Source: a virus (taxonomy: Duplodnaviria; Heunggongvirae; Uroviricota; Caudoviricetes). Taken from it: 6,155 nucleotides of DNA. The position numbers and the translations under genes were made by a program. Under the pieces are notes generated by a model that had not been told where the DNA came from, did no database searches, and worked only from the letters and a program-made list of their open reading frames with translations. Where the stretch lies: IMG/VR virus record IMGVR_UViG_2541047432_000011; one strand, 5' to 3'. Positions 1,996-6,155 of this stretch are shown here, one piece after another (position 1 is the first letter of the stretch; each line of letters starts with the position of its first letter).

Positions 1996-2231
1996 TAAAA
2001 CCTCGCCAGTTTAAATCCCGGTTTTCCCCGCCTGCGGCTCACCATCGCGGCAAGCCTGCGTTCCCACTCCTGACGTCCGGCGCGGATCTGAGAAAGGCTT
2101 TCCAGCGTCAGTTGCTGCCCGTTGAAGATGACAGACTTTCCCTCCAGTACGGCCATTTCCGCTTCACGGTACCGCTGTATCATTTCTCTGGCTTCTTCTG
2201 TGCTCACAACCAGCCTCCTGATGTTATCCAT
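1995..2231 (-). CDS. Head-tail joining / head completion protein, lambda gpW-like
   Basis: 78-aa ORF ending in the basic tail SRRRGKPGFKLARF, like the lambda gpW C-terminus QRRRGPAGFYV (from memory). It sits between large terminase and portal as in lambda. The true start is probably the internal GTG at 2207..2205, giving 70 aa: it is preceded by a perfect AGGAGG (2219..2214) with a 6-nt spacer and overlaps the TerL stop as GTGA. The ATG at 2231 would overlap TerL by 28 nt behind a weak SD. Confidence 0.75.
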   Translation of the reverse strand: MDNIRRLVVSTEEAREMIQRYREAEMAVLEGKSVIFNGQQLTLESLSQIRAGRQEWERRLAAMVSRRRGKPGFKLARF

Positions 2232-4327
2232 GGATTATCTTCCGCACGCTCCGTCCGCAGTTTTTTCTTCCGGCGACGGCGTTTTTCTGCCCCGGCCGTC
2301 AGTTCCGGGGATACCGTTTCACCAGAACGCTCCTGCGGGAAGACGAGCCACGTTTCCCGCTGTGCCCAGTCCGGTGCGGAGGGCCAGCGGATCTTTTCGT
2401 AACCATGCAGAACGGCAAGCGCATCCGCATAAACCAGCAGGTCAAACGCTTCGTTAGCGCCCCTGCCCGGTTTTCGCCATTTTCCGTCACTGCCGCGCTC
2501 TTCATAGGTCAGCTCATCGTAAAACCACCGCCCCAGCCAGTCGGGAAAGTGGATATAGTTCGGCCCTGGTGTGTCACGCCACAGGGCATTATTTACACGA
2601 TCCTTAAACGCATCCGTCTGAACCAGCCACAGCGCGACATCGCCACTGGCTCTGGCACGGCGGGCACTTCTGCCGGTATTATCCGGGAAGGTTCGGTTAA
2701 TCAGCCTGTCACGGCGAAGTCCATCCCCCTTGAACAGAAACACCCTGTTGCCCAGTCCGTCACTCCGGCAACGACGCCAGAAACGATAGGCGTTATCTGT
2801 CACCCCGGCTTCCCCTCCCGTATCCACCGCCATGGCCATCAGACGCATGCGCACATCCGGATCAGAAGCCAGCGGCCATGTTTTATGGAACACATCCGTC
2901 AGCAACAAATCCCAGTCCTCCGGATATGCCGCCGGATCAACCGGCAGACTTTCACCGTTGGGACTGCAGCGCAGTGAATGCCGGATGTTGTAGCGATCAA
3001 CAATCCAGCGTTCCCCCTGCTCTCCGTATCCGGTGATCTGCACAACAAAACGGCGATTTTTACCGCCCTGTACGTCAACCGTTGCCTCAATAAAACGCAC
3101 ACCATCCGGCACAGATCGCCGGGGAAACGGCTCGGCACGCTGTTCAAGCAGTTCACTTTTACGCTGTTCCGTGGCTGAACGGGGCAGATAGGGTCGTCCG
3201 ATATCGGTGTTCACCACCGCTTTCAGGGTCTCTTCACTGCCGGTTCGCTCATACTCTTCTTCTGCCGCCAGCAGTTTAAAAATCAGTTGTTCCCAGGTCT
3301 GAAACGCCGCAGCTGGCCCCTCCATCCAAAATGACGCAATCCGGGAGTTTCGTGGCGTTCCGGTGATACTGCCGTCCGCCGCCGCCCGTTCACCTTCACG
3401 AAGCCAGATCCCCTGGTTATTCAGTTCGCGTTTCTGCTCAGGGGCAATCAGCCCGCGACAATGCGGACACATCAGACGGGCAGCCTGACCGGCAGCCACA
3501 AAATCCGGGTTATTCCGGTATCCGGTCATGTTATCCATCACCGGCTGAAAATATTCCCCGCAGTGCGGACACGGCCAGTACCACCGGCGGCGGTCTCCCC
3601 GGTTATACAGTGACAGGATCCCCGTTGTTGGCGGTGCCTCATGTGCGCCACCACAACGCCATTTGGTATCGGTGATATCCCGCCCCGGTGAACTCTCGAC
3701 CAGGGTCATCCCCGAGGACATAAAGGTGGTGGTACGCTTTGAGGCCAGCGTGAAGGCATCCCCTTCCCCGTCCACATTTTCAGGGAAACGGTCATAATCC
3801 GTCAGCGCCACACGACGGTAATCCGAAGAGGAAAAGACGGTGATCGACGGCCAGCCAATCTTCAGGAAGGAGCCGTCAAGAAACATTTTATCGTGGACGT
3901 TGTTGTCATTACGGGAAGGACTGAGGCGCTTGCTGACCTCCGGACTGTGGCGAAACGTCCTGGAAAGACGCGTTCTGGAATGCTCACGCGCCTTCGTCTC
4001 AGTCATCTGCACCACCAGCATATCCGCCGGATCACAGATGATGCCGTACACAATCCAGCCATCAATCAGCCCTTCGGTTTTCCCGGTTCGCGCAGGTCCC
4101 ACAAACACCACCGCGTCATATTCACGGGCTGATAATGTATTAATGGGGTCAATCATATAGGGCGTCAGCGATGACTCCCACGGACCGGAAGTATTGGCTC
4201 CCCGTGGAACCCGCATATAACGCCTGATGGCTTCCGCTACTGGTAACCGGCTGGGTGGGCGAAACAGCGAGGCCACTTCGCGCCAGATATCGGATGCGCG
4301 GCTATGGCTCTCGTTCACCTGATTCAC
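2204..4327 (-). CDS. Terminase large subunit, lambda GpA family (ATPase plus cos endonuclease)
   Basis: 707-aa ORF. Walker A-like GPARTGKT is encoded at 4099..4076, which I verified codon by codon. N-terminal SLFRP and the CPHCGEY motif match lambda gpA SLFRP and CPHCGEE (from memory). The start is GTG at 4327..4325, overlapping the TerS stop (ATGTGA). It lies directly downstream of the Nu1-like gene. Confidence 0.9.
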   Translation of the reverse strand: MNQVNESHSRASDIWREVASLFRPPSRLPVAEAIRRYMRVPRGANTSGPWESSLTPYMIDPINTLSAREYDAVVFVGPARTGKTEGLIDGWIVYGIICDPADMLVVQMTETKAREHSRTRLSRTFRHSPEVSKRLSPSRNDNNVHDKMFLDGSFLKIGWPSITVFSSSDYRRVALTDYDRFPENVDGEGDAFTLASKRTTTFMSSGMTLVESSPGRDITDTKWRCGGAHEAPPTTGILSLYNRGDRRRWYWPCPHCGEYFQPVMDNMTGYRNNPDFVAAGQAARLMCPHCRGLIAPEQKRELNNQGIWLREGERAAADGSITGTPRNSRIASFWMEGPAAAFQTWEQLIFKLLAAEEEYERTGSEETLKAVVNTDIGRPYLPRSATEQRKSELLEQRAEPFPRRSVPDGVRFIEATVDVQGGKNRRFVVQITGYGEQGERWIVDRYNIRHSLRCSPNGESLPVDPAAYPEDWDLLLTDVFHKTWPLASDPDVRMRLMAMAVDTGGEAGVTDNAYRFWRRCRSDGLGNRVFLFKGDGLRRDRLINRTFPDNTGRSARRARASGDVALWLVQTDAFKDRVNNALWRDTPGPNYIHFPDWLGRWFYDELTYEERGSDGKWRKPGRGANEAFDLLVYADALAVLHGYEKIRWPSAPDWAQRETWLVFPQERSGETVSPELTAGAEKRRRRKKKLRTERAEDNPWITSGGWL

Positions 4328-4800
4328 ATATCGGCCTCATCACAACAGTCAATGACTGCCTTTTCCAGTGTGTCGCGGATCTCATCAACCACAATCTGTA
4401 CTTCATTCAGTTGTGATGCAGTCCACCCCCTGTCCCTCTCCAGCCGGTCAGGCCAGGTTTCCAGTACCTGAACTATCGCTTTCACCACGACAGAAAAGGA
4501 CCGCCTGACATCACTGACTGGCACAAGCTGAACAGTTTCATGCTGAAATTTAAGACGCTCGCGCTCGGACTGATACCATGCCTTACGAGCGTGAGGATCC
4601 ATATCCTCATCTTCGGAAGATGGTGGTTTTTCCAGCAACGAAGTTATCAAATCCGTCAGGAGATACAGTTTTTTCTTTTCATTACTGCCTGGTGCAAGAG
4701 GAACATCCGCCATTCTGGCGGCAACAGTCTGCCGGTGCAGACCTGAAAGGGCTGCCAGTTGATTAATATTTAACTTCATATTTTTCAGCTCGCCGTCCAT
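4324..4800 (-). CDS. Terminase small subunit, Nu1-like (N-terminal HTH DNA-binding domain)
   Basis: 158-aa ORF. MKLNINQLAALSGLHRQTVAARMADVP aligns with lambda Nu1 MEVNKKQLADIFGASIRTIQNWQEQGMPV (from memory). It is the first gene after the cos region, and its stop overlaps the TerL start. The ATG at 4800 has GGAGGG 7 nt upstream; a second possible start is the ATG at 4779, which would align better with the lambda Nu1 N-terminus. Confidence 0.8.
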   Translation of the reverse strand: MDGELKNMKLNINQLAALSGLHRQTVAARMADVPLAPGSNEKKKLYLLTDLITSLLEKPPSSEDEDMDPHARKAWYQSERERLKFQHETVQLVPVSDVRRSFSVVVKAIVQVLETWPDRLERDRGWTASQLNEVQIVVDEIRDTLEKAVIDCCDEADM

Positions 4801-4985
4801 TTACATCCCTCCACATAAACCGCAGAACAGAAGTGACTCTGTTTTTTTGTAAAGAAATGCCGCCATATAAAGATGTCGAACAAAAAACAACCACAATCAT
4901 CATCTTTTTAATACTAACAGCATTAAAAACAACAAGTTACCATCATGATGATGATGACGATAAAATCACAAAAATGCGCCTTTTT
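4801..4985 (-). other. cosB-like region: AT-rich, A-tract-rich terminase-binding and bending segment between cosN and the small terminase start
   Basis: About 185 bp of non-coding AT-rich DNA immediately upstream of the TerS start, with multiple A/T tracts. The minus-strand reading CGTCATCATCATCATGATGGTAACTTGTTGTTTTTAATGC parallels lambda cosB CGTTCTTCTTCGTCATAACTTAATGTTTTTATTTAAAATACC (from memory). I could not assign individual R elements or an IHF site. Confidence 0.55.
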
Positions 4986-5004
4986 CCGCGCCCGCCCGCC
5001 CCGT
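4986..5004 (-). other. Candidate cosN (terminase nicking site / cohesive-end core)
   Basis: Minus-strand reading of 5004..4986 is ACGGGGCGGGCGGGCGCGG. This compares with the lambda cos junction ACGGGGCGGCGACCTCGCGGG (from memory): identical ACGGGGCGG on one side and CGCGG on the other, with a different central segment. It lies roughly 185-200 bp upstream of the TerS start, as in lambda. Exact nick positions cannot be derived from sequence. Confidence 0.5.
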
Positions 5005-5035
5005 GTTCAGGCCCACCCCACCAGGAGGACCCGCA

Positions 5036-5056
5036 AAATGATAATGGTTATCATTT
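5036..5056. repeat. Perfect 9-bp inverted repeat AAATGATAA-TGG-TTATCATTT, function unknown
   Basis: Read directly: 5036-5044 aaatgataa, a 3-nt spacer tgg, and 5048-5056 ttatcattt, the exact reverse complement. It lies about 30 bp from the cosN-like core on the side away from the terminase. Confidence 0.9.
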
Positions 5057-5260
5057 GCAACAAAATCCAGTTTCTTCCACCATCGCACCGGACTGGCGAC
5101 TATGAGGGGACAACGCCGCGCTCCGTTAACGCGGTAAACCCCGGTGTGTATCGTTTTTGATTATCCCCGCACACTCGCGCAGAGGATTCTCCCGGTCGGG
5201 CTGCGGTCTCTGTTAATGCAGGAATACGGCGACAATACCGCGCATGAATAATAAGGTCGC

Positions 5261-5485
5261 TCAACACACTGGCTGTAATGCAGCGGATACCATGCGGCAT
5301 TTAGCGGCATTCATCGTACACTCAACGGTTAGCTCTTCATTCGTGGCATTCACCTGAAAGGTCCTGGAGTGTAATTGCGTACATTTACCACTGAACGAAC
5401 CTTCAACAAGAACACGACCACGCTGCAAAATACGGAACGGAATTGTTCCCTGAAAAGGCTTTACGGTTACCAATAATTTCTTCAT
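5261..5485 (-). CDS. Hypothetical small protein, 74 aa, four Cys, function unknown; candidate moron between lysis cassette and cos
   Basis: ATG at 5485..5483 is preceded by GGAG with a 5-nt spacer; the track's longer form starts at TTG 5503. The product is MKKLLVTVKPFQGTIPFRILQRGRVLVEGSFSGKCTQLHSRTFQVNATNEELTVECTMNAAKCRMVSAALQPVC. It starts 20-odd nt after the Rz stop on the same strand. I see no signal peptide, no TM segment, and no family I recognise. Confidence 0.5.
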   Translation of the reverse strand: MKKLLVTVKPFQGTIPFRILQRGRVLVEGSFSGKCTQLHSRTFQVNATNEELTVECTMNAAKCRMVSAALQPVC

Positions 5486-5508
5486 GCATTCTCCGAATAA
5501 CAAAAATA

Positions 5509-5976
5509 CTAGTTAATACACTGAGTGCGGATATATTCCTGAAGCATTCTCAATGCTGCCTGGTCGCTGATGATTCCGTCTCTGATACCGAGAACGTTTC
5601 GTCCAGCAACCGGAGAGAGTTCGACGGCGGCATCATTGCCCACGCCGGAGGTGCCGGTGGCTTCACGCACGGTACCGGGGCAGGTGGCGTTGATCCGCAG
5701 GCGCTTACGACCAGCGGCAACATCAGCACGCAGAGTTTCATTTTCAGCTCTCGCATCGGCTAATTCCCTCGAGTATTTTGCATCGAGCGCAGCAACATCA
5801 CGCTGGCGCACCTGCATGTCAGTAATGGTGGCATTCGCCTGTTCCAGCTCTCTGGCTTTTTTATCGCGCTGCGCTTTGTAGGTGAGCGCGTTGTCACGGT
5901 AATGGTTTGTTGCCAGCCACAGCGCACCACAGCCAACCGCCATGACAATAATCACCACACACAGAACACGGTTCAT
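5509..5976 (-). CDS. Rz: Rz i-spanin (inner-membrane spanin subunit)
   Basis: 155 aa with an N-terminal TM segment ([19 protein letters not shown]) followed by [45 protein letters not shown]. This is near-identical in pattern to lambda Rz [45 protein letters not shown] (from memory). Confidence 0.92.
5550..5756 (-). CDS. Rz1: Rz1 o-spanin (outer-membrane lipoprotein), embedded out of frame in Rz
   Basis: [22 protein letters not shown] aligns with lambda Rz1 MLKLKMMLCVMMLPLVVVGCTS (from memory). It has a lipobox-like VSAC followed by a proline-rich stretch [21 protein letters not shown], and lies entirely inside the Rz reading frame in a different frame. Confidence 0.85.
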
Positions 5977-5983
5977 CTCTCTT

Positions 5984-6155
5984 TCACCCCACCAGTCCCG
6001 ATAACGTCAGGACTCGCCAGGCGGTGGAAAAGAAAATGGCAACCAGCATGACTAAAAATGAAATGCCGACAAGTACACAGAGGCTCTTCACCAGCGTTAT
6101 GAGTTTATCTGATATCATTAGCCACCCCATCAATCCGCCTTTGTTATTTTCCCTT
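5984..6155 (-). CDS. Small hydrophobic ORF immediately upstream of Rz; 5' end uncertain or beyond window
   Basis: The frame is open from the window edge to TGA at 5986..5984 and reads ...[56 protein letters not shown]. Candidate in-window starts are ATG 6130 (48 aa) and ATG 6118 (44 aa, with GGTGG 4 nt upstream). It contains one TM-like hydrophobic stretch of about 28 aa. The stop lies 7 nt before the Rz ATG. It is below the ORF-track size cutoff. Confidence 0.4.

Follow-up and report, generated by a model that had tools for sequence, protein, structure and literature searches.

We analyzed a 6,155-bp stretch of phage DNA (IMG/VR record IMGVR_UViG_2541047432_000011, Caudoviricetes; referred to below as the window), in which all genes are on the minus strand, and concluded that the 74-amino-acid (aa) open reading frame (ORF) at 5261–5485 (minus strand, stop codon included), located between the spanin genes and a candidate cos site, is a real protein-coding gene under purifying selection. 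It is very probably a genuine accessory cargo gene that lies outside the lysis and packaging machinery of the phage. Its accessory status follows from the clean insertion or deletion (indel) of the gene, its low GC content and its presence beside approximately one quarter of the related Rz copies; that it is not tied to lysis or packaging follows from the many types of terminase small subunit (TerS), holin and spanin found with the family, and from distant relatives in slots away from both modules. We also propose, tentatively, that the product acts as a binder in conflicts between phage and host or between phages. Taken together, the claims of a real gene carried as mobile accessory cargo and encoding a small binder in such conflict are given even chances. 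Few unexplained genes of Escherichia coli prophages are more common. It is also an ordinary, already annotated hypothetical phage gene, catalogued as an entity and uncharacterized as a function.

A first-pass annotation, prepared by reading the DNA letters alone, had described a 74-aa ORF with a good Shine-Dalgarno (SD) sequence, co-oriented with its neighbors and placed between the spanins and cos. This description was confirmed. The open frame and its translation match an identical annotated coding sequence (CDS) in relatives, and a GGAG element read at 5491–5494 (minus strand) precedes the ATG at 5485 with a 5-nt spacer; the ATG itself is 23 nt from the Rz stop codon. The coordinates given in that annotation, 5261–5503, correspond to the listed frame from a TTG at 5503 to the stop (in-frame extension at 5486–5503, minus strand, 80-aa version), and the length of 74 aa corresponds to the internal ATG start, as in RefSeq and GenBank. 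The TTG is probably wrong as the true start, because no SD lies ahead of it and all homologues and annotations begin with MKKLL, i.e., at the ATG.

A search of 5.8 billion proteins gave 66 relatives or clusters from Escherichia and Salmonella with an intact frame, ranging from 100% down to 56% identity and mostly of exactly 74 aa. Profile search of 1.84 billion cluster representatives added further relatives of 70–81 aa at 25–40% identity, which have the motif MKxLxVT...F.V.Q.G.VLvED..SGK...Y.VDA.D..L.V. in common. A coding signal, which the first-pass annotation had left to be checked, was present: the ratio of nonsynonymous to synonymous substitution rates (dN/dS) was 0.19–0.54 at dS up to 0.75 (Nei-Gojobori method, nine DNA copies, codons 1–57), and substitutions clustered at third codon positions (e.g., 12/4/20). 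The other reading frames gave ratios of about 0.8–3, except for one antisense frame that shares its third positions with the sense frame and is interrupted by stop codons in the window. AlphaFold2, supplied with a 22-sequence alignment, predicted a structure with a mean pLDDT of 91 and a pTM of 0.78. The small size of the ORF, the lack of a Pfam family and annotations that go no further than hypothetical would suit a frame that is open by chance, or else a non-coding element (for instance an RNA, or a portion of the late operon's 3' end). That explanation is effectively refuted, and we give it almost no weight, in view of purifying selection limited to this frame, same-length homologues at 25–40% identity, the confident structure prediction and the good SD. 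An RNA element was dropped after an Rfam scan returned nothing relevant (best score 22.8 bits for PrrF vs. a gathering score of 90).

Proteins identical to the window protein are deposited as WP_000735655.1 in RefSeq and BCI50138.1 in GenBank (both "hypothetical protein") and as A0A0D6ZJZ6 in UniRef ("Uncharacterized protein"), and the protein is found on at least 1,000 contigs. The first-pass annotation did not recognize the family, and the database searches agreed with it: Pfam (E up to 1) and NCBIfam gave no match, no known domain of mundane function was found, and the only assignment was PHROG 2571, itself of "unknown function" (E 2.8e-28, 99.9 bits, residues 1–73 on profile positions 100–172 of 291). 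All relatives found, including the distant ones and a 280-aa form, match the same PHROG, no member of which has a described function. The match is partial because the profile is built around the 280-aa form (P0076), which matches the whole profile; the window protein consists of the central β-sandwich domain only. The idea that the ORF is a fragment of a longer gene was rejected, as most members are full-length at 68–81 aa. Among the Pfam families for lysis, Bor, PF24729 and other anti-defense, virulence or exclusion proteins, none matched. Searches with PADLOC at E up to 0.1 were negative for the window protein and five relatives, with the exception of the 181-aa relative P0068, which gave a weak ZorA match (E 0.0063, 13.2 bits) mostly in its C-terminal extension. 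The PDB sequence search gave no significant match.

The accessory nature that the first-pass annotation had suspected was borne out by the distribution of the gene. DNA of the ORF region was detected at 2,795 places in 1,280 of 5,426 complete E. coli genomes (∼24%), at up to seven places per genome, with multiple copies in O157:H7 and with Stx-converting phages among the carriers. The Rz type of the window occurs at 12,196 places in 4,267 genomes, and this is the set of which one quarter carries the gene alongside. In a four-way DNA alignment the difference was a clean indel of ∼260 bp, the cassette being present in the window and in Stx2_95 and absent from VT1-Sakai and Stx2_112808, where the Rz stop is joined directly to cos-proximal DNA. 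The latter two phages have the same TerS and a cos region >95% identical, without the gene. Absence or a frameshift in close relatives had been raised as a possible objection to the ORF; absence was found in these two phages, by the clean indel and not by decay. From the alignment and the GC content, the gene-sized cassette (spacer, SD, ORF and stop) extends approximately from 5248 to 5508 on the minus strand. A short imperfect direct repeat, CAGTGTnTTnA, is found at both edges of the cassette (ACTCAGTGTATTAAC at 5512–5526, the end of Rz, and GCCAGTGTGTTGAGC at 5261–5275, the end of the ORF, minus strand); it could be either a chance occurrence or a remnant of the recombination event by which the gene was gained or lost.

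GC content and GC at third codon positions are 0.453 and 0.44 in the gene, compared with 0.551 and 0.564 in Rz and 0.574 and 0.603 in the terminase large subunit (TerL) gene; TerS and the cos region are also lowish, at 0.48–0.49 GC. A consensus scan of the minus strand detected no sigma-70-like promoter of the gene's own, promoter and terminator counts being at chance level, and the sole terminator-like hairpin lies inside the ORF. Judged against the usual (Hendrix-type) description of a moron, the gene is thus a gene-sized insertion of distinct base composition that lacks its own promoter and terminator.

The gene order in all close relatives is Rz, the ORF and then variable content. In some relatives this content comprises a reverse YlcI/YnfO gene, an HNH gene and an HK97-like terminase, and in Salmonella and E. 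coli relatives Nu1-type terminases are found; in others cos and a DUF1441 TerS follow directly, as in the window. Where Rz is 164 aa long, the SD lies inside the Rz 3' end and the ATG of the gene overlaps the Rz stop (ATGA). The mosaic represented by window positions 4300–6155 (Rz, the gene and DUF1441 TerS) is carried at ≥80% by only 33 of the 5,426 complete E. coli genomes, the best match being 95.5% identical. The 361 bp at 5200–5560, which contain the gene and the last ∼50 bp of Rz, are 100% identical to O157:H7 prophages with HK97-like packaging.

The slots occupied by distant relatives were the decisive observation on the nature of the gene. Relatives from Yersinia phages (P0084) keep the post-spanin position with different holin, spanin and terminase families; the 280-aa form and gene 060 of the cultured phage mEp237 (hhalign probability of 99.5% with the family profile) are also located after the spanins. 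Two Salmonella members (P0091 and P0108) and one from Xenorhabdus (P0081) are found between the Q antiterminator gene and the holin gene, the slot that carries stx in Stx phages. A member from a Yersinia prophage (P0071, matching the close-family profile at E 1.4e-11) lies beside an S24 repressor, a protein kinase and ParDE, upstream of erf, xis and int. The terminase small subunits found with the family are of the DUF1441, Nu1, HK97-like, Terminase_2 and Terminase_4 types, the holins are Phage_holin_2_1, 2_3, 3_1 and 3_3, and the spanins are Rz or DUF2570/LysC. Because distant members sit after the spanins, between Q and the holin or on the immunity side, the family moves among three classic lambdoid accessory hot-spots without a constant lysis or packaging partner. 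Neighbors in these slots include toxin-antitoxin pairs, methyltransferases and a protein with an Acb2/Tad1 hairpin. The last is encoded directly after Rz in a Xenorhabdus prophage (L031, 3699–3941), with 44.5 bits to PF24729 against a cut-off of 27, so that the PF24729 test of the window protein was one that could come out positive. Judging from this gene content, the post-spanin slot can carry counter-defense cargo.

The window protein has a mass of 8.2 kDa and a pI of 9.69. The first-pass annotation had reported no signal peptide or transmembrane (TM) segment, and this was correct (highest 19-residue Kyte-Doolittle mean of 0.76); there was also no lipobox, catalytic motif or DNA-binding motif. 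The predicted fold is a compact all-β sandwich with seven strands and one short helix. A Foldseek search of PDB and BFVD gave no match with E below 0.09, and the structural neighbors are generic jelly-roll or β-sandwich binding modules such as CBM6/35/36, PNGase F domains, the hemocyanin C-terminal domain and a domain of the lambda tip protein J. The four cysteines (positions 35, 56, 63 and 74) and the basic charge emphasized by the first-pass annotation are indeed present, and the significance attached to them did not hold up. Cys35 is present in all members of the close family and Cys56 in ≥90% of them, Cys63 and Cys74 are confined to one subgroup, and no Cys column is conserved in the wider family alignment. 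Other members are acidic (pI 5.0–5.7), the basic charge being peculiar to the window variant. Since neither feature is kept across the family, the cysteines and the charge are therefore not its functional core; a Cys-based metal-binding or disulfide motif and nucleic-acid binding deduced from the basic pI were both rejected on these grounds. In the wider family M1, V6 and G33 are invariant and K2, F17, Q21, K34, V45 and A68 are ≥90% conserved, with only scattered conserved polar residues.

The same β-sandwich domain is embedded in longer proteins. The three-part 280-aa form (L015/L016, 5001–5843) adds an N-terminus of helical appearance and an unassigned C-terminal part, and C-terminal extensions are found in P0068 and in P0074 (169 aa). 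In a 225-aa protein (P0078) a weak Phage_Tail_Tip match was noted upstream of the domain. Three giant repeat proteins retrieved by the profile search (P0073, cystatin; P0085, HYR_4C; P0098, TQ) were rejected as homologues, because Pfam shows unrelated repeat domains in them and many weak matches add up.

A gene for a ∼70-aa PHROG 4280 protein, likewise uncharacterized, comes next after the PHROG 2571 member in approximately half of the separate contexts, with the same orientation and a gap of 39–94 nt. Such pairs were found in Salmonella (in two different slots), Yersinia, Xenorhabdus, a metagenome contig and mEp237 (genes 060 and 061); the cassettes are located at L019 4001–4471, L010 5001–5559, L031 1430–1951, L029 5001–5534, L035 (mEp237) 2696–3222 and L014 193–746. 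The second protein carries the motif DPDN.GWVLGW.VV...PW.L.GVYA...GS.R.G.DDF, has distant relatives in Pseudomonas phages, and gave no Pfam or PDB match. A 5'-degraded copy persists in one lineage of E. coli (L023). Neither the window nor any O157-type copy contains PHROG 4280, as judged by tblastn and by PHROG scans of the small downstream ORFs. Comparison of two solo lineages (the window and L008) gave a dN/dS of 0.25 at dS 0.63, and because such lineages are under purifying selection the window gene must work without the partner.

We propose that the gene is a self-contained, horizontally mobile piece of cargo of lambdoid phages of Enterobacterales; in this phage it is appended to the 3' end of the holin-endolysin-Rz/Rz1 cluster. 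Expression would be late, from the Q-antiterminated transcript, as suggested by the SD, the lack of a detectable promoter and the coupling to Rz in relatives. The product, an 8-kDa soluble cytoplasmic protein predicted to form a single small β-sandwich, may bind and block, or titrate, another macromolecule belonging to the host or to a rival phage, and its role would be that of a counter-defense or inter-phage competition factor. Mobility, patchiness, neighborhood and the non-enzymatic appearance of the protein point in this direction. The Acb2/Tad1 sponges offer a comparison in size (∼70–80 aa), solubility, patchy distribution and slot: in L031 the hairpin protein occupies the same post-Rz position as the gene in the window, and a PHROG 2571 member is present in the same phage. 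The resemblance is positional only, and it ends at the protein level, where the window product has no PF24729 match, is predicted as an all-β sandwich and has no identified nucleotide-binding motif. Several considerations weigh against the proposal. Arguing from the neighbors in accessory hot-spots (guilt by association) gives weak evidence, known counter-defense genes are more often early than late, and the close relatives (≥56% identity) all lie after the spanins and are sometimes translationally coupled, as a lysis accessory would be. In addition, no paper in the literature library that was searched mentions the accessions or the PHROG number, and the term mEp237 matched unrelated DOIs only. 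A further possibility, which we regard as doubtful, is that PHROG 2571, alone or with PHROG 4280, constitutes an unrecognized inhibitor family directed against host immunity or a rival prophage; the family would then travel among the three hot-spots as a mobile cassette of one or two genes, and it is multi-copy in Shiga-toxigenic E. coli. If so, a new mechanism would be expected, as the β-sandwich has no informative structural neighbor.

Other roles were weighed against the proposed cargo role. The constant position directly after the spanins in every close relative examined, the ATGA overlap where Rz is 164 aa, and the retention of this position in mEp237 and the Yersinia phages with different lysis proteins would all suit a lysis accessory or regulator, i.e., a cytoplasmic protein made together with Rz/Rz1 that binds, for example, the holin tail or the spanin complex, by a logic analogous to that of cytoplasmic antiholins or of the β-sandwich proteins of other lysis cassettes. 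We consider this role unlikely, since the gene is optional beside near-identical lysis cassettes, occurs with no single conserved partner among holins and spanins, which belong to at least three unrelated families, and has distant members upstream of the holin or far off in the immunity-side region; the product has no membrane, SAR, signal, lipobox or periplasmic targeting feature and no muralytic domain match. The structural match to XepA, of the XepA/YomS type known from Bacillus prophage lysis cassettes, was no better than those to dozens of generic sandwiches and ranked below many of them; XepA is a 276-residue protein of a Gram-positive element with 5% identity, and the family studied here is not confined to lysis cassettes. 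A role in packaging or at cos (aiding terminase, cos recognition or end protection) is highly improbable. The gene is the last one before cosQ/cosN, 260 bp off, and the window variant is basic (pI 9.7); VT1-Sakai and Stx2_112808, with the same terminase and cos, lack it, which argues for normal packaging in its absence. Moreover, the family is associated with at least five unrelated TerS types and is also found far from cos, and most members are acidic, with no DNA-binding motif. The suggestion in the first-pass annotation of a packaging or lysis accessory factor was thus not upheld, given these TerS types, three holin and spanin types, and distant members away from both modules.

A lysogenic-conversion moron like lambda Bor, expressed from the prophage and giving the host a fitness, virulence or exclusion benefit, appears improbable. 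Like bor, the gene lies in the Rz-to-cos interval and is a dispensable, gene-sized insertion; its low GC content, its presence at up to seven places in pathogenic O157:H7 genomes and the Yersinia member downstream of repressor and kinase genes, in a region often expressed in lysogens, fit as well. By the lambda annotation and established knowledge, however, Bor is a lipoprotein of the outer membrane whose gene lies on the opposite strand and is expressed in lysogens, whereas the window gene is co-oriented with the late lysis genes, shows translational coupling in relatives and has no promoter or terminator above chance. Its product has no lipobox, signal peptide or sequence similarity to Bor; unlike Bor, Lom or Cor it is not exported and is neither a lipoprotein nor membrane-bound, and it resembles no known virulence or exclusion family. 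There is also a low probability that the gene is the orphan half of a PHROG 2571/PHROG 4280 module, the window copy having lost its partner and either acting differently or disappearing; the ancestral pair would have been toxin-antitoxin-like, an exclusion system or a sensor-effector pair. The recurrence of the pair, including mEp237 and two Salmonella slots, the degraded partner in L023 and the frequency of toxin-antitoxin modules among the neighbors favor this explanation. It is opposed by the abundance of solo lineages under purifying selection (all O157-type copies), by further members that stand alone or form fusions with other domains (P0076, P0068 and P0074), and by the lack of a PADLOC match or recognizable toxin fold in either protein. 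If the proposed cargo gene is a counter-defense or competition factor, it would bring a new fold and target, and it could affect the spread or induction of Stx phages in polylysogens. Should it be no more than a minor accessory protein, the result is still useful, in that the gene is excluded from the lysis and packaging machinery and the cysteines and charge are shown not to be family features. In either case it is best studied together with PHROG 4280.

The region downstream of the gene contains a candidate lambda-like cos at 4990–5054 (minus strand), proposed from its resemblance to the lambda genome ends in local alignment. A cosQ-like block at 5026–5054 matches the right end of lambda at 26 of 29 positions, contains the cosQ heptamer GGGTCCT, and is invariant across four related phages with DUF1441-type TerS in the four-way alignment. 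The candidate cosN, GGGCGGGCGGGC at 4990–5001, follows 24 nt past this block; in lambda, GGGCGGCGACCT follows after 23 nt, and the candidate cohesive-end sequence differs from that of lambda. The distance from the candidate cosN to the TerS ATG is ∼200 bp (191 bp in lambda). The first-pass annotation had estimated the interval between the lysis genes and cos at ∼500 bp vs. ∼2 kb in lambda, and measurement from the Rz stop to the candidate cosN gave 508 and 2,075 bp, respectively. The ORF stops 260 bp short of the candidate cosN, without overlap with cos. On the terminase side, ∼30–60 bp away from this candidate cosN, CAT/GAT triplets form a run at 4940–4960 (CCATCATGATGATGATGACG, plus strand); it lies roughly at the position of cosB in lambda and is largely conserved in the four aligned phages.

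The other genes of the window (all minus strand) are as follows: TerS of the DUF1441 family, the next gene past cos, at 4324–4800 (PF07278, E 3.8e-48; phrog_141 "terminase small subunit", E 6e-66), TerL at 2204–4327, a small W-like gene at 1995–2231 and the portal gene at 493–1995. The interval from the Rz stop to the TerS start is 708 bp and contains the 74-aa ORF. Directly upstream of this ORF is the gene for the 155-aa i-spanin Rz at 5509–5976 (PF03245, E 1.5e-39; phrog_13, E 7e-73), with the Rz1 o-spanin frame embedded in it at 5550–5756, identified as an ORF with the lipobox-like sequence LVVSAC.

Two further ORFs were noted next to this region. A 66-aa ORF at 5103–5300 (minus strand) overlaps the 3' end of the gene and extends into cos-proximal DNA. 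It matches phrog_6954, "Rz-like spanin" (E 1.4e-13), and the underlying DNA is conserved even in phages without the gene; it looks like a doubtful or misnamed ORF family, not a spanin. Just upstream of Rz, a 49-aa ORF at 5984–6133 (minus strand) is strongly hydrophobic and has no Pfam match. Relatives carry a CDS of ∼48 aa annotated as "hypothetical protein" between an antirepressor-like gene and Rz, which corresponds to it by position only, and the ORF may encode a small membrane protein within the lysis cluster.

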